In this document: positions 2,240-62,917 of the stretch, piece after piece
Numbering within the stretch: the stretch's first letter is position 1
How the letters are laid out: each line of letters begins with the position of its first letter
From: Sphyrna mokarran
Taxonomy: Eukaryota
Reading direction: 5' to 3'
Assembly (NCBI GenBank): GCA_024679065.1
Contig: JAGIQG010000024.1
Location: forward strand, 31,682,001 to 31,746,000
Length of the DNA stretch: 64,000 bases
Position numbers and translations under genes: made by a program
Notes under the pieces: model-generated
Database searches by the model: none
Seen by the model: only the letters and a program-made list of their open reading frames with translations
Told to the model about the DNA's origin: nothing

Positions 2240-3745
2240 AAGGCTACATTAATTAGGAGCAGAAATAGGCCATTCGGCAATTCAATCCACCTCTGCATTC
2301 AATAAGATCGTGGGCTGATCTAATTGAGGCACTAATTCCATTTTCCTCTCTGCCCCTCTCATTCTTGGCTCTCTTATTTATCAAAATTTAACTCTGCCTT
2401 GAATAAATTCAATGACCCAGCCTCCACATCTCTCCAGAGAAGAAAATTCCACAAACTAACAACTCCCTCAGAGTAACAATTATACTCATGTCTGAAATGT
2501 GAGACCCCTAACATTTAAACAGCATCGCCTATTTCTAGACCACACAAAGTGTTCACCCTGTCAAGTCCCCACAGGACCTTATACGTTTCAACAAGATCAC
2601 TTCTGGCTCTTATGAACTCCAGTGGGTAAAGGCCCAATCCTTCCTTCTAAGGTAACCCTTTCATCTCAGGAATTAGTCAAAAGGATCTTCTCTGGACTGC
2701 TTCTAATGTGATCAAATCATTTATTGAGCAGAGACTAAAACTGTACATGGTAATCCAGCTGTGATCTCATTAACCCTCCGTATAGTTTTGGAAACACATC
2801 CCTACATTTATACTCGCTTCCCCTTGCAATAAATAGCAACGTCCAATTTGTCTTCCTCATCACTTGCCGTATACGTATATTAATTTTTTGTGGTTCATCT
2901 ATCAAGGCACCCAGATCCCTGAGTACCATAGAGTTCTGCAATCTCTCAACATTTAAATAAGATGCTGATTTTCTGTTTTTCCTGGTCCAGTTCATATTTT
3001 CTCAAATTATGTGCCATCAGCCAAATTTTTTGCCCAATAACTTAACCTAAATTCTTCACTGACTCTTGATATCCTCTTGACAATTCACTTTCCAACCTAC
3101 ATTGTGTCATCATCGAACTTCATACATTCAGTCCCTTCACCCAGGCCTCTGATACAGATTGTAAATAATGGGAAGCCACTGCATTAATCATCATAAGCAG
3201 TTTCACAACACCAGGTTAAAATCCAACAGGTTTATTTGGAATCACAAGTTTTCAGAGCACTGCTCCTCACCTGAGGAAGCCCATGATTCCAAATACACCT
3301 GTTGGACTTTAGCCTGGTGTTGTGAGACTTCCTACTGTGCCTCCTCCAGTCCAATGTCAGCATCACCACATTATCAATTACCAAGGTATTCTAGTAACAG
3401 ACTGCCAATTTTAAAATGACCCATTTATCCCTATTCTCTGATTCTTGTTAGTTTATTGATCCTCTACCCATGCTTATATATTACTCCTTATACCATGAGT
3501 TTTTTTATTCTATGACATAACCTTTGATGTGGCACCTCATCAAATTCCTTTTGGGAATCCATCTGTCCACCTCCACAGCTTCCATATTATCCATCTTGGT
3601 AGTTACTTCTTCAAAGAACTGTAATAAATTAGCCAAACAACATTTACATTTTGCAAAACCATGTTGACTCTGTTGGATACATTATGAATTTCTAAATGTC
3701 TTGATATTGCCTCCTTAAAAATGGATTCAAGTGTTTTCTCAATAA
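2240..3745 (-). mobile_element. Decayed CR1 LINE 3' portion (RT C-terminus and tail), interrupted by a Penelope-derived insert
   Basis: ORF 2735..2995 (RDLGALID...FIARGSEYKCRDV..LYGGLMRSQLDYHVQF) parallels the intact CR1 RT at 31446..33461; RT remnant caaaaccatgttgactc near 3655. Confidence 0.85.
3193..3372. mobile_element. Penelope-derived fold-back insert, family A
   Basis: Inverted arms cacaacaccaggttaaaatccaacaggtttatttgg / ccaaatacacctgttggactttagcctggtgttgtg, plus ~40-nt tail ccagtccaatgtcagcatc. Confidence 0.8.
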
Positions 3746-19403: not shown

Positions 19404-19652
19404 ACTAAGTAGTGTTACAACACTAGGTTAAAGTCAAACAGGTTTATTCGATAACAAAAGCCACTGGCTTTCGGACCTCTGACCCTTCATCAGATGAGTG
19501 GAGAGTTCTGATCACACTCCACTCACCTGACAAAAGATCAGAGGCCTGAAAGCTAGTGGTGTTTGCTACCAAATAAACTTGTTGGACTTTAACCTGGTAT
19601 TGTGAGACTTCTTCCTGTATTTATCCCAGTCCAACCCCAGCATCTCCACATC
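19404..19652. mobile_element. Penelope-derived fold-back insert family A, hammerhead-like cores on both arms
   Basis: Minus arm CTGATGA-agggtcagaggtcc-GAAAgc; plus arm ctgacaaaagatcagaggcctgaaagcta; tail cccagtccaaccccagcatctccacatc. Confidence 0.85.
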
Positions 19653-23870: not shown

Positions 23871-24439
23871 AACATTTTTGATTTCATTCTATGTAAAAGA
23901 ATTTTTTTTAAAAAATGTATTCCTTTCCTAGAGTTACAAAGCCAATCTGCAGAGCGGACGGGCAAACCCTTAATCCATCTCCTTGCTTGCTTCAAAAAGC
24001 CACTCAAATTTCATTCAATTCACGGCTCCCACCCAAGGACCATGCTAGGTCCAAGCTGACCAGAATGGGATTAGACTTGAACTCAAGCTTGATCTTAGCC
24101 AAAAGGCCAGGAAGTGATATTCAGGAGATGCAGACAAAGCAGTGACCACATATTTTCATTTATTATGAACAAGAAAGAAGTGTGGGAAAATCAAGACTTT
24201 ATGGTCAGAGACCCTCTTGCAATGTCAATGATTTTGAATATTGACTTCTGTCATTCACTAAAATGATGTCCGGAAGCCAAGTATATATTGCGGCAATTAA
24301 AAGTTACAATGAACTATGAATTATCCTTTCATATACATTTTAATTTGCTCAGAATAAGTTCAGGATGTTCTTCTGAGATTGCTGCTCTCGCTACCCTTTG
24401 CTAACTTGATACAAGTGGGTTAAATTATGTCTAAAAAAT

Positions 24440-25762: not shown

Positions 25763-26038
25763 ATTGTTCTGATTCCAGTTTAAAATCAGACATAGAAGTG
25801 GAGGTCGAAAGGAACACCATGTGCAAAAATAATGGAATGATTGGAAATGAGGGGTTACATTTTGAAAAGAGATTGCCTCTGGAAATTTTAGCTTGACATT
25901 GCGTTAAACTGATGAAATCTCAGGGTTATTACGTAGAGAAATCTGTTAGTTGAGTAATGAACCATCCATTTACTTATCTTGGCACTGAATTTTAATTGGT
26001 CTGAAAAAGTAACTACCTATTGTATTACTTGCAATTCT

Positions 26039-26169
26039 GCATGTTTATGTGCACGCTCATATACGTGTGCATATCCATGCATGTGTGCATAGGTGCATGC
26101 GCACAGTCGCGCATGTGTGCACACGTGCACAGTGTGTGTGTATATGTGTGTGCACGTGCACATGCATGT
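26039..26169. repeat. Alternating purine-pyrimidine (TG/CA/CG/TA) compound microsatellite
   Basis: gcatgtgtgcacacgtgcacagtgtgtgtgtatatgtgtgtgcacgtgcacatgcatgt. Confidence 0.85.
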
Positions 26170-28885: not shown

Positions 28886-30272
28886 AATTTAACTTGCAGA
28901 TAACCTTTCTTTTTGTTATGCAGCTGACTGTGAGTGATAATGGGCACTGGATGGTCAACTATACCTGAAGGAATTGATTGGAGATAGTCAGCATTGTTTT
29001 GTGAAGGGTAGGTCATGCCTTACTGACCTTATTGAGTTTTTTGAAAAAATGACCGAAGAAGTGGATGGGGGTAAGGCAGTTGATATGGTATATATGGACT
29101 TTAGTAAGGTGTTCGATAAGGTGGCCCATGGAACGCTTCTGCAGAAAATGCAGATGTATGGGATTGAGGGTGATTTAGCTAATTGGATTAGGAATTGGCT
29201 AGCAGATAGAAGACAGAGGGTGGTGGTTGATGGAAGTTATTCATCGTGGAGTTCAGTTACAAGTGGTGTACCTCAGGGATCTGTTTTGGGGCCACTGCTG
29301 TTTGTAATTTTTATAAATGATCTGGATGAGGGTATTGAAGGATGGATTAGTAAATTTGCAGATGACACCAAAGTCGGAGGAGTAGTAGATATGAAGAGAG
29401 GTGTTATAGTTTGCAGAGAGACTTGGACAAGTTGCAGAGTTGGGCCGAGAGGTGGCAAATGGAGTTTAATGCGGAAAAGTGTGAGGTAATTCACTTTGGC
29501 AGGAATAACAAATGTGTAGAGTATAGGGCTAATGGTAGGACGCTTAATAGTGTTGAAGAACAGAGGGATCTTGGTGTATATGTGCATAGATCCCTGAAAG
29601 TTGGCAATCAAGTCGATAAGGTTGTTAAGAAGGCATACGGAGTCTTAGCTTTTATTGGTAGGGGGATTCAATTTCGGAGCCGCAACATCATGTTGCAACT
29701 GTACAAAACTCTAGTGCGGCCGCACTTGGAGTATTGTGTGCAATTCTGGTCCCCGCATTATAAGAAAGATGTGGAGGCATTGGAGAGGTACAGAGGAGGT
29801 TTACCAGGATGTTGCCTGGTATGGAGGGCAGGTCTTATGAAGAGAGGCTGAGGGATTTGAGGTTGTTTTCGTTAGAAAGAAGGCAGCTAGGAGGAGACCT
29901 TATTGAAACATATAAGATGATTAGAGGTTTAGATAGGGTGGACAGTGATAGCCTTTTTCCTAGGATGGAGAAAGCTAGCACGAGGGGCCATAGCTTTAAA
30001 TTAAGGGGTGGTAGTTATAGGACGGATGTCAGAGGTAGGTTCTTTACCCAGAGGGTGGTAAGGGTATGGAATGCCCTGCCTGTGGCAGTTGTAGATGCGC
30101 CAAGTTTGGTGGCATTTAAGAGGTTAGTAGATAAGTTTATGGACAAAAAGGGAATGGTTTAGTTTAGAGGTCATGATGTACAGATGCCGGCGTTGGATTG
30201 GGGTGGTAAGAACTCAGTAAGAATTTAGCAACACCAATTTATAATCCAACCGATTTATTTGATAGTAAAAAA

Positions 30273-30304
30273 GCGAGCTTTCGACTCCTGTGTCTTCATC
30301 AGGC
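30273..30304 (-). ncRNA. Minimal hammerhead ribozyme motif (mirror copy)
   Basis: Reverse complement GC-CTGATGA-A-GAC acagga GTC-GAAA-GCTC-GC. Confidence 0.65.
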
Positions 30305-30314
30305 AAATGCATTT

Positions 30315-30346
30315 GCCTGACGAAGACACAGGAGTCGAAAGCTCGC
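30315..30346 (+). ncRNA. Minimal hammerhead ribozyme motif
   Basis: GC-CTGACGA-A-GAC acagga GTC-GAAA-GCTC-GC: intact CUGANGA/GAAA core, stem II, palindromic AGCT in place of stem III, 2-bp stem I. Confidence 0.65.
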
Positions 30347-30624
30347 TTTTTTACTATCAAATAAATCGGTTGGATTATAAATTGGTGTTGCTAAATTCTT
30401 ACTTAGTTTAGAGGGTCATTGCTTTTTCCTAATTGGTCGGCGCAACATCGAAGGCCGAAGGGCCTGTTCTGCGCTGTAATGTTCTATGTCGATGGTCTGC
30501 ACCTGAACCGGAGAGGTACCAATATCTTGGGGGGTAAATTTGCCAGTGCTATTCGGGGGGGGTTTAAACTGATTCGGGGAGGGGGGATGGGAACCTCAAT
30601 TGTTGTGCCAGTATACAGGAGGAT

Positions 30625-31308
30625 GTGAATAGGGAGATCATGGACAAGTTTTCTAGGTTGCAGCAGTATAGTGGCAAACGGGAGGGTGGTTTGAAGTGTG
30701 TATACTTTAATGCGAGGAGCATACGCAATAAGGTGGATGAACTTGCAGCCTGGATTGGTGCTTGGGACTTAGATGTTGTGGCCATTTTAGAGACGTGGGT
30801 AGAGCAGGGGCAGGAATGGTTGTTGCAGGTTCCGGGGTTCAGATGTTTCAGTCAGAGCAGAGGTGGTGGTAGAAGAGGGGGAGGAGTGGCATTGTTAGTT
30901 AAGGACAGCATTATGGTGGCAGAAAAAACGTTTGATGTGGACTTGTCTGCTGAGGTAGATTGGGCTGAGATTAGAAACAAGAAAGGAGAGGTCACACTGT
31001 TGGGAGTTTTTTATAGGCCTCCAAAAAGTTCCAGAGAAGTAGAGGAAGGGATTGCAAAGCTGATCCTGGATAGGTGTGGAAGTAACAGGGTAGTTGTAAT
31101 GGGGGACTTTAACTTTTCTAATATCGATTGGAAAAGCTATAGTTCAAGTACGTTAGAGGGGTCAGTTTTTGTTCAATGTGTGCAGGAAGGTTTCATGATT
31201 CAGTATGTAGATAGGCCAACAAGAGATGAGGCTATATTGGATTTGGTACTGGGTAATGAACCAGACCAGGTATTAGACTTGGAGGTGGGTGAGCATTTTG
31301 GTGAGTGA
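30625..31308 (+). pseudogene. CR1 ORF2 apurinic endonuclease domain
   Basis: YFNARSIRNK, DVVAILETW, GGGVALLVK, GVFYRPP, MGDFN, ILDLVL; ends at a 2-bp insertion just before SDHN. Confidence 0.92.
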
Positions 31309-31445
31309 GTGACCACAATTCGGTTATGTTTACCTTAGTGATGGAAAGGGATGGGCACATACCGAATAACAGTAGTTAAAGCTGGGGGAAAGGTAATTAT
31401 GACACTATTAGGAGAGATTTAGGATGCATACGGTGGAGCAGGGTA

Positions 31446-33461
31446 TTGCAGGGGCTGGGGACATCTGAAATGTGGAGCATATTTAACGAACAGTTTCTGC
31501 ATGTCTGTAATAAATATGTACCTGCCAGGCAGGGAGGAAGTGGTCGAGTGAGGGAGCCATGGTGTACTAGGGAAGTTGAATCTCTGGTGAAGAGGAAGAA
31601 GGAGGCTTGTATAATGATGAGACATGAAGGCTCAGTTAGGACACTGGAGAGGTATAAATTAGCCAGGAAGGAGCTAAAAAGGGAGTTGAGAACAGCCAGA
31701 AGAGGACACGAGAAGACTTTGGCGGATAGGATTAAGGAGAATCCTAAAGCTTTTTACAGATATATAAATAATAAAAGATTGGTTAGGGCAAGATTAGGGC
31801 CAGCCAGAGATAGCAGTGGGAAGTTGTGCGTGGAGCCTGAGGAGATAGGAGAGACACTGAATGAGTATTTTTCGTCAGTATTCACGCAGGAGAAAGACAA
31901 TGTTGTCAGGGAGAATACTGCGATACCAGGTTGTAGACTGGGCAGGATTGAGGTTCATAAGGAGGAGGCGTTAGCGAATCTTGAGGGTATGAAAATTGAT
32001 AAGTCCCCTGGGCCAGATGGGATTTACCCTAGGATTCTCTGGGAGGCTAGAGAGGAGATTGCAGAGCCTTTGGCTTTGATCTTCATGTCGTCGTTGGCTA
32101 CAGGTATAGTGCCGGAAGACTGGAGGATGGCAAATGTTGTCCCTTTGTTCAAAAAGGGGAGTAGGGACCATCCTGGAAATTATAGACCGGTGAGCCTGAC
32201 TTCTGTTGTGGGCAAAGTCTTGGAAAGAATTATAAGGGATAGGATTTATAAGCATCTAGAGAGAAATAAATTGATTAGGGATAGTCAGCACGGTTTTGTG
32301 AAGGGTAAGTCGTGCCTCACAAACCTTATTGAGTTTTTTGAGGAGGTGACCAAAGAGGTAGATAAGGATAAGGCAGTTGATATAGTGTATATGGATTTTA
32401 GCAAAGCGTTTGATGAGGCTCCACATGGTAGGCTACTGCAGAAAGTGCAGATGCATGGGATTGAAGGTGATTTAGCAGTTTGGATTAGGAATTGGCTAGC
32501 TGATAGAAGACAGAGGGTGGTGGTTGATGGGAAATATTCAACCTGGAGTGCAGTTACAAGTGGTGTACCTCAAGGATCTGTTTTGGGGCCACTGCTGTTT
32601 GTCATTTTTATAAATGACCTAGATGAGGGTGTAGAGGGTTGGATTAGTAAATTTGCTGACAATACCAAAGTGGGGGGAGTTGTAGACAGCGAGGATGGAT
32701 GTTACAGTTTGCAGAGGGACATAGATAGGTTGCAGAGCTGGGCCGTGAGGTGGCAAATGGAATTCAATACGGATAAGTGTGAGGTGATTCACTTTGGTAG
32801 GAATAACAGGTATATGAAATATAGGGCTAATGGAAGGACCCTTAATAGTGTTGTCGAGCAGAGGGATCTTGGGGTACAAGTACATAGCTCTTTGAAAGTT
32901 GGCACCCAGGTTGATAAAGTTGTTAAGAAGGCGTACAGTGTGTTAGCTTTTATTGGTAGAGGGATTGAATTTAGGAGCCGTGAGGTTATGTTACAACTGT
33001 ACAAAACTCTGGTGCGGCCGCACTTGGAGTATTGCGTACAGTTCTGGTCGCCGCATTATAAGAAAGATGTGGAAGCATTGGAAAGGGTGCAGAGGAGGTT
33101 TACCAGGATGTTGCCTGGTATGGTGGGAAGGCCTTATGAGGAAAGGCTGAGGGACCTGAGGTTATTTTCATTAGAGAGAAGAAGGTTACGCGGTGACCTA
33201 ATTGAGGCGTATAAGATGATCAAAGGATTGGATAGGGTGGATAGTGAGAGCCTTTTTCCTTGGATGGTGATGACCAACACGAGGGGACATAACTTTAAAT
33301 TAAGAGGTGGTAGTTATAGGACGGATGTCAGAGGCAGGTTCTTTACACAGAGGGTGGTGAGGGCGTGGAATGCCCTGCCTGCAGCAGTTGTGGACTCACC
33401 TACTTTGGGGGCATTCAAATGTTCGGTGGATAGGCATATGGATGATATTGGAATAGTTTAG
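31446..33461 (+). pseudogene. CR1 ORF2 reverse transcriptase (671-aa open segment, catalytic FADD changed to FADN)
   Basis: [47 protein letters not shown]; preceded by in-frame TAA at 31377-31379. Confidence 0.92.
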
Positions 33462-33594
33462 GTTAGAGGGTCCACTGGCCGGTGCAACATTGAGGGCCGA
33501 AGGGCCTGTACTGCGCTGTAATGTTCTATGAAGGTATGTAGCATCTTCTGACACTTGCAATACCGTGGTTTTCATTTTTAATTGTTAAAGGAAA

Positions 33595-34242
33595 GGAATT
33601 TAATTCATGCATCAACTTTCACGCACCCCAGGGCGATTCAAAAAACTTCAGAGCCAACTAGGTACTTTCAAAGTGAAGCCACGATAGTTATAGTAGTGAA
33701 TGTGACAGTTAATATGGTAAGTTCTCTCACAACATCAGGTTAAAGTCCAACAAGTTTATTTGATAGTAAACCCACAAGCTTTTGGGGTTTGCCTCTTCAC
33801 CAAATAAGTGGAGAGCTCTGGTCTCAAACAGAGCATATAAAGGCTGATGTTGTGAAACTTCTTACTGTGTTTACCCCAGTCCAATGCTGGCATCTCCACA
33901 TTAGAGTTAGTATGGGCAGAGAAGTGGTCCTATAAACAACCCTGTAATACATAACCCCCAGATACTATTTTTGAGTGATGTTTGCTGAGGAATAATTAAT
34001 GGTGAGGACACTGGGGAGAACCTTGCCACTCTACTTTGAATGGTGCCAGAGGATGCTTTGCATCCAGCTGATGGAGCAGATGGGATCACAGTTTAATACT
34101 TTGTCCAAATGATGGCACTTCTAACAGTGCCACATTCCTTCAATGCTGCTCTCAAGCGTTAGGCTGGATTGTGTGCTCAAATCCCTGGGCTTGTATCCAG
34201 GAACTTCTGCCTCAGGGTTGAGAGTGGTACCACTCAGCCAAG
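33595..34242 (-). mobile_element. Deu-domain SINE (SacSINE1-like) interrupted by a Penelope insert
   Basis: Head (gagagtggtaccactcagcca on +), Deu-like core gatggcacttctaacagtgccacattccttcaatgctgc, tail around 33600-33712. Confidence 0.7.
33716..33901. mobile_element. Penelope-derived insert family A
   Basis: ggtaagttctctcacaacatcaggttaaagtccaac...gtgaaacttcttactgtgtttaccccagtccaatgctggcatctccaca. Confidence 0.8.
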
Positions 34243-62719: not shown

Positions 62720-62917
62720 ATAAGAAGTGTCACAACACCAAATGAAAGTCCACGAGGTTTATTTGGCATCATGAGATTTCGGAGCGCTGCTACTCCTTCT
62801 TTATCAGGTGAGTGGGCACAGCAGTGGACCATTCACTGATGAAGGAGCAGTGCTCCAAAACCTCATGATACCAAATAAACCTGTTGGACTTTAACCTGGT
62901 GTTGTGAGAATTCTTAT
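62720..62917. mobile_element. Penelope-derived fold-back insert family A
   Basis: Inverted arms; plus core CTGATGA-a-GGAGCagtGCTCC-aaaa. Confidence 0.85.

Follow-up and report, generated by a model that had tools for sequence, protein, structure and literature searches.

A Hammerhead Palindrome in a CR1 Retrotransposon as a Head-to-Head Pair of Truncated Penelope-like Element Ends

Introduction

Near the middle of a 64-kb window (the whole stretch of Sphyrna mokarran DNA that was analysed), two arms of a near-perfect palindrome each carry the core letters of a hammerhead ribozyme, one on either strand. The question raised by this locus is whether such an arrangement functions as an RNA element or is what remains of an insertion. 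The insert is a pair of 5′-truncated end (pLTR) copies of an endonuclease-bearing (EN+) Penelope-like retrotransposon (PLE), placed head to head between 12-bp target-site duplications (TSDs) within the 3′ end of a CR1 element. Head-to-head inverted truncated copies with a one-sided tail and a TSD have already been described for PLEs (PMC8557442; PMC3846280; PMC8969392), and the origin of PLE tandem and inverted structures has been called still undefined (PMC8557442).

Structure of the Insertion

The palindrome described originally is borne out. The arms at 30216–30309 and 30310–30403 are exact reverse complements apart from a sole mismatch at 30298 (A)/30321 (C), and sequence comparison finds no spacer between them. 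In a repeat search of the window, chance matches stretch the arms out to 30211/30408. The core strings also lie where they had been placed, with CTGATGA and GAAA on the minus strand (30302–30279) and CTGACGA and GAAA on the plus strand (30317–30340), and the cut site predicted from the sequence falls at the position given before, after CTC at 30344. The claim that both cores are intact holds for the core letters but not for the helices, stem I having 2 bp and stem III consisting of the palindrome AGCT with no loop.

The target duplication is shorter than the 16–17 bp first claimed. The exact repeat spans 12 bp (TTAGTTTAGAGG; Table 1) and is the only direct repeat within 29500–31200; the modal TSD length in the PLE family is 12–13 bp. 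The added TCAT is the tail end of the element and not target sequence, because paralogues at unrelated sites carry it as well. A 40-nt one-sided extension without a partner, overlooked previously, lies between the left TSD and the left arm. The host was rightly taken to be a CR1 element, both of its parts aligning with an intact CR1 at locus L062 (identities in Table 1). The insertion splits it 8 nt past the ORF2 stop, and this stop codon (TAG, 30160–30162) falls within the target duplication.

Table 1. Features of the insertion and its host (positions in the window; positions with a sign are counted from hammerhead C3).
Feature	Coordinates	Strand	Basis
Host CR1 LINE, ORF2 end, 5′-truncated and frameshifted	28968..30170	+	blastn 93.3% over 1205 nt and tblastn against intact CR1 L062; Pfam of L062 ORF
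Left TSD copy, 12 bp; ATG at −5..−3 before the TSD fits the family target motif	30159..30170	+	
One-sided PLE tail, +93..+132 from C3; ends at parent ORF start codon (ATG 30174–30172)	30171..30210	−	tail continues into 893-aa ORF in full-length copies
Left arm, 5′-truncated pLTR copy, sense on minus, 5′ end at −8	30211..30311	−	
Core of a minimal type I hammerhead; N7 is T, likely by CpG decay; cut predicted after 30275	30275..30302	−	
TGCA, 4-nt self-complementary overlap common to both arms at the junction	30308..30311	.	arm mapping; same centre at 109 loci
Right arm, 5′-truncated pLTR copy, untailed, end ~+86	30308..30402	+	
Core of a minimal type I hammerhead; N7 is C; A9 followed by an extra A, stem II 3 bp, loopless AGCT stem III, stem I 2 bp	30317..30344	+	
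Right TSD copy; CAT at +3..+5 after the TSD mirrors the left motif	30403..30414	+	
Remaining host CR1 3′ UTR	30403..30489	+	blastn 92.0% over 87 nt against L062

Other features of the window were recorded alongside. A second, longer CR1 (30491–33530, 81.5% identical to L062) starts immediately past the end of the host CR1. Related pLTR families are represented by four older head-to-head pairs, all decayed, at 3194–3334, 19407–19613, 33708–33874 and 62745–62892, with arm identities of 74–78%; these pairs make up four of the seven related stretches checked in the window. No remnants of a PLE ORF were found by tblastn within the 64 kb. A U2 snRNA-like fragment at 23912–24118 (−), under the Rfam gathering score, is probably a pseudogene, and an alternating purine-pyrimidine repeat at 26037–26163 yields sub-threshold miRNA matches.

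The Parent Element

Genome G000 (2.77 Gb) was searched for related copies, and 40 of 1427 candidates were scored. All 40 scored places match at 93–100% over ~238 nt, and the flanks differ at each. Both near-identical copies and a parent element with an intact ORF were thus found in this genome, in agreement with a recent insertion from a distinct PLE subfamily.

The intact parent (L207:403–3084; G000:C1, from 83496402) encodes 893 amino acids with reverse transcriptase (RT), Cys linker and GIY-YIG motifs. Loci sharing the same end encode an RT (RVT_1, E 7.5e-10) along with a GIY-YIG domain at the C terminus (E 8.9e-5), and the single ORF with RT and C-terminal GIY-YIG that characterizes EN+ PLEs is present in the parent family. 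The L207 protein itself matches RVT_1, with no GIY-YIG match on the whole protein at E 0.1; the domain match comes from the C-terminal piece of L066, at 23.2 bits against a cut-off of 22.6. The L207 translation contains the motifs given for EN+ PLEs in PMC8557442, namely ADKGG and VVY-LIS-CKKGC-PEA-WYIG, then NEH and GEH. The DKG and CCHH motifs are present, with two cysteines between GIY and YIG, and the CX2-5CxxC linker upstream of GIY-YIG, the mark of Neptune and Nematis, reads CHSNLCKTC.

In L206, L208 and L209, the pLTR with its hammerhead lies both upstream and downstream of the ORF, in the partial-tandem arrangement of PLEs. With hammerhead C3 counted as +1, the parent ORF starts at +129, and the tail therefore ends at the parent start codon. 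The layout of an EN+ PLE insertion, with an inverted 5′-truncated copy, a one-sided 30–40-bp tail and a TSD, is found at the locus studied here. Two further arrangements were noted in the family. The L207 ORF is flanked by an inverted copy plus an untailed end, and L211 (G000:C749:36342000–36344600) is an array of ~nine 155-bp units without a hammerhead core. Each unit joins the pLTR, from +32 onward, to the tail and the opening codons of the ORF, and the array is inverted at one point.

Copy Number and Anatomy of the Pairs

Exact-pattern counts in G000 found a 30-nt stretch of the core 4,881 times, together with 8,988 copies extending on to −108 and 3,038 head-to-head pairs within 400 nt. The two cores are at most 30 nt apart in 967 cases, and the identical spacerless centre occurs at 109 loci. 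The palindrome is not unique; it is one of ~1000 such copies in the genome.

The first 50 of the 3,038 listed loci, which one anchor pattern had picked out and which all lie within the initial 40 Mb of contig C1, were taken as a sample, and both arms were mapped on a parent copy. Exactly one arm is tailed in 50/50 pairs, the untailed arm ends at +80..+110 in these 50, and the TSD measures 12–14 bp in 37. Three complex loci were left out, leaving 47 simple pairs with 94 arm ends. The 5′ ends cluster, with 59 of the 94 at −22..+2, compared with 3 at −47..−23, 10 at +3..+27 and 14 at +28..+52. Within a pair these ends correlate (rho 0.52, 47 pairs); in 16 pairs it is the untailed arm that extends farther upstream, in 10 it is the tailed arm, and in 21 the two are equal. 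The arms of the simple pairs differ at 53/3419 sites (1.55%) against 6.8% after shuffling, and none of 2000 shuffles was as low. Both cores could be parsed in 26 pairs; the diagnostic sites are identical in 13, show single changes in 10 and carry different haplotype states in 3. As the latter states are found as haplotypes in other copies, these 3/26 pairs suggest that two RNA templates are used at times. Upstream sequence missing from the tailed arm is present in the untailed arm of two of eight long pairs, and amounts to more than 1.5 kb in L066.

The mismatch at 30298/30321 occupies the variable N7 position of the core, and its proposed origin in CpG decay is most likely correct. Only 4/50 listed pairs differ at N7, all by C/T in a CpG, and the arms agree in the other 46 (24 G, 10 T, 8 C and 4 A by hand count). 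Among the listed copies of this subfamily, N7 is T in 3/100.

The targets bear a symmetric MTG...CAK motif, which the site in the window fits on both sides. From 79 loci examined, 63 had a TSD of 11–14 bp; with the motif picked after inspecting the data, MTG lies within −6..−2 on the tail side in 50/63, on the other side in 53/63 and on both in 42, against a background of 0.12. Other repeats have taken separate insertions at an identical site in more than one of their copies, some of these insertions being of different haplotypes (L108/L114/L087; L092/L128; L090/L011). Such shared sites point to a target-sequence preference.

The Hammerhead and the Switch Proposal

The locus carries the conserved core of a minimal type I hammerhead (CUGANGA, GAAA and NUH, with helix II). 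An Rfam search did not call a hammerhead here at E 1. A match to mir-553 was rejected, being well under the gathering score and of the kind that any long hairpin gives. Helix I has 2 bp instead of the 4–5 bp of the class, with a predicted pairing probability for this stem of 0.0009 in a lone arm and 0.0000 in the insert; stem II of a lone arm reaches 0.04. For the full insert, a hairpin of −166.9 kcal/mol is predicted; the hammerhead helices come to −3.3. The hammerhead pairing probability is 0.0000 both there and in a nascent transcript stopped at 30356, as computed with a folding program that represents neither a loopless helix III nor dimers nor protein assistance.

The palindrome had been proposed to act as a self-silencing switch, in which the hairpin competes with the ribozyme or serves as a source of siRNA. 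The core letters are intact on both strands, and a long dsRNA hairpin would form upon read-through of the locus. PLE hammerheads can be protein-assisted (PMC11167929), and helix I of Drosophila virilis Penelope is also 2 bp (PMC4209133). Nevertheless, the predicted energies lie far on the side of the hairpin, and the hammerhead helices have a near-zero probability. Whichever strand is read, transcription passes the antisense arm before it reaches the core, and each transcript holds a single sense core, whereas PLE motifs are described as acting as dimers (PMC4209133); it follows that a switch is unlikely. In the same report, cleavage by minimal hammerheads of metazoan PLEs was absent when the motif was single and slight in dimers. 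Moreover, ~1000 like copies arise as by-products, and this copy bears no mark of selection. A functional switch is consequently given very little credence. Roles as a dsRNA or ADAR substrate and as a cruciform may be side effects of the palindrome.

Across 76 cores of the family, helix I ranges from 0 to 6 bp, with 2 bp in 31 cores and 6 bp in 7. Judged from these sequences, selection on cleavage in the family looks weak. It was also noted that the 3′ strand of stem I (+29..+36 from C3) varies among source haplotypes family-wide, with the core letters constant.

Formation of the Pair

The evidence on mechanism is a genomic footprint throughout. The pair likely arose from one insertion event, with reverse transcription primed off both nicked target strands on one RNA, a reading to which a probability of roughly 0.7 is assigned. 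According to this model, a dimeric RT-endonuclease would nick the two target strands 12–13 nt apart. One 3′-OH would prime at ~+130 of the RNA and the other at ~+90, and both cDNAs would run off at the RNA 5′ end, which is placed at ~−20. The cDNA ends would then be trimmed and joined, at this locus through TGCA. The product has no ORF and would, by prediction, be a dead stump; a transcript reading through it would fold into one long hairpin in which the hammerhead would not cleave.

Several of these steps have counterparts in the PLE of the anole. Both strands were cut and extended in vitro, reverse transcription began at two internal RNA sites bounding the tail, the enzyme is predicted to be dimeric, and hammerhead cleavage was not required (PMC11167929). 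The preference reported for the anole enzyme, ATT in AT-rich DNA, is unlike the MTG/CAK motif and counts against the model (PMC11167929).

The principal alternative is self-priming, in which an antisense RNA or the first cDNA folds back on itself and the endonuclease resolves the hairpin, leaving the one-sided tail; the element and the dead product would be the same. Self-priming has been proposed for head-to-head PLE palindromes (PMC3846280), and the tail has been attributed to endonuclease-mediated resolution (PMC8557442). The matching arms, the correlated 5′ ends and the TGCA overlap fit a fold-back, and a hairpin cut later at either of two sites could also yield one tail per pair. The near-equal 5′ ends in 21/47 pairs and the rho of 0.52 count against two-strand priming to the extent that a fold-back predicts them too. 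What speaks against the fold-back is that neither arm is a subset of the other. In its simple form it predicts no pairs with a longer untailed arm, yet the untailed arm has extra upstream sequence in 16/47 simple and 2/8 long pairs, and the arms are of different haplotypes in 3/26. Self-priming is accordingly regarded as unlikely. It is still less probable that the palindrome is itself a mobile non-autonomous unit, similar to a retrozyme or a SINE and copied whole from palindromic masters. The exact spacerless centre at 109 loci would suit such copying, as would the centre and haplotype that L009, L011 and L017 have in common. Against it, the centres are highly varied among pairs, and copies that share one centre differ in their N7 and loop states. 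Spacer lengths run continuously up to kilobases with an ORF inside, and the palindrome lacks the tandem array that non-LTR retrozymes are stated to need (10.64898/2026.07.22.740005).

The arms could also be unreal or secondary, either as an assembly fold-back artefact or as two older arms homogenized by gene conversion. The arms are 99% identical, and none of the contigs listed bridges the locus. Joints that skip 30159–30402 occur in two contigs of X1 and one of X3, an empty allele being indistinguishable from other CR1 copies. Opposed to both possibilities are the clean TSD, the one-sided tail, the family-typical target motif and the single CpG-type mismatch, together with hundreds of differently flanked loci of the same anatomy. 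The TSD, the tail and the 109 loci with the same centre make the artefact very unlikely. The homogenization once considered is unneeded, since nearly all copies have matching arms while their centres vary. Artefact and homogenization together are left with a minimal probability.

With priming off both nicked strands as the preferred reading, two further candidates for the 5′ edge or the template were rejected. Hammerhead-cleaved RNA as a template is contradicted by the arm ends, only 3/94 of which lie at +27..+33. Splicing at an acceptor-like TTGCAG site (−19) gave 0 copies against 8,988 unspliced, in a check that counted copies with at most 45 nt between one upstream anchor and the acceptor. 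The genome-wide count of non-parental bases drops only from 508 at −20 and 359 at −21 to 219 at −23 and 238 at −25, with point mutations mixed in, and this limited drop counts against the model. A check for cap-derived G covered 22 contexts at 20 loci, of which 6 were point mutants, 9 had their G from the partner arm and 7 were undecided.

Comparison with Known Systems

The architecture is already known, and the single locus is ordinary. The complex insertions described for EN+ PLEs (PMC8557442), including Pen2a of Adineta vaga (PMC3846280), show the same head-to-head inverted copy, single-end tail, TSD and palindrome at the inverted junction, and the same pLTR with a hammerhead and a tail reaching the ORF start. 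In contrast to these, the copies here are cut to ~95 and ~140 nt with no ORF between them, the 5′ ends cluster just upstream of the hammerhead, the target motif is symmetric, and the TSD is 12–13 bp, as opposed to 8–10 bp in the examples from rotifers. Poseidon PAc of Anolis carolinensis (PMC11167929) shares a tail bounded by two internal RT start sites ~100–140 nt from the hammerhead, an uncleaved RNA template and the use of both strands. It differs from the parent described here, which has the CX2-5CxxC linker of Neptune/Nematis, an ORF starting 129 nt after C3 (inside the hammerhead in PAc) and a target motif of MTG..CAK instead of ATT (PMC11167929).

The minimal hammerheads of metazoan PLEs (PMC4209133) have the same extra base between 9 and 10.1, G10.1-C11.1 pair, palindromic 15.2-16.2 and absence of a helix III loop, whereas the present haplotype has a stem II of 3 bp and a stem I of only 2 bp. 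Dual hammerheads on opposite strands, 100–700 bp apart, were noted in Schistosoma in 2014 (PMC4209133). Non-LTR retrozymes resemble the insert in their non-coding nature, type I hammerhead and origin from a PLE pLTR, but are described as head-to-tail tandems in which one strand bears two or more cores (10.64898/2026.07.22.740005); the locus is head to head with one core per strand, and a head-to-tail series of two or more units, each with a complete core on the same strand, is not found there. In a literature search of limited coverage, neither twin priming in PLEs nor PLE palindromes in sharks turned up in any paper, and no relevant recent study of the mechanism was found.

Significance

It is the set of copies, rather than the single locus, that bears on the origin of PLE tandem and inverted structures. 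The ~3,000 short palindromes may be a genomic record of PLE insertion, in which a dimer would cut a symmetric MTG-N2-(12-13)-N2-CAK site. One transcript, starting ~20 nt upstream of the hammerhead, would serve as template for two cDNAs, each primed at its own fixed site in the 5′ pLTR, and these would be joined head to head. The odds of this wider proposal are put at about even. If it is true, inverted pLTRs would no longer be ascribed to antisense self-priming, and the nick sites, the start sites and the start of the transcript would be mapped for a vertebrate Neptune-type element whose intact ORF is available. Concrete predictions for in vitro work with that ORF follow from the one-tail rule, the symmetry of the target motif and the sharp edge of the 5′ ends. 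In addition, ~1000 near-perfect hairpins in one genome could supply dsRNA or fragile sites.
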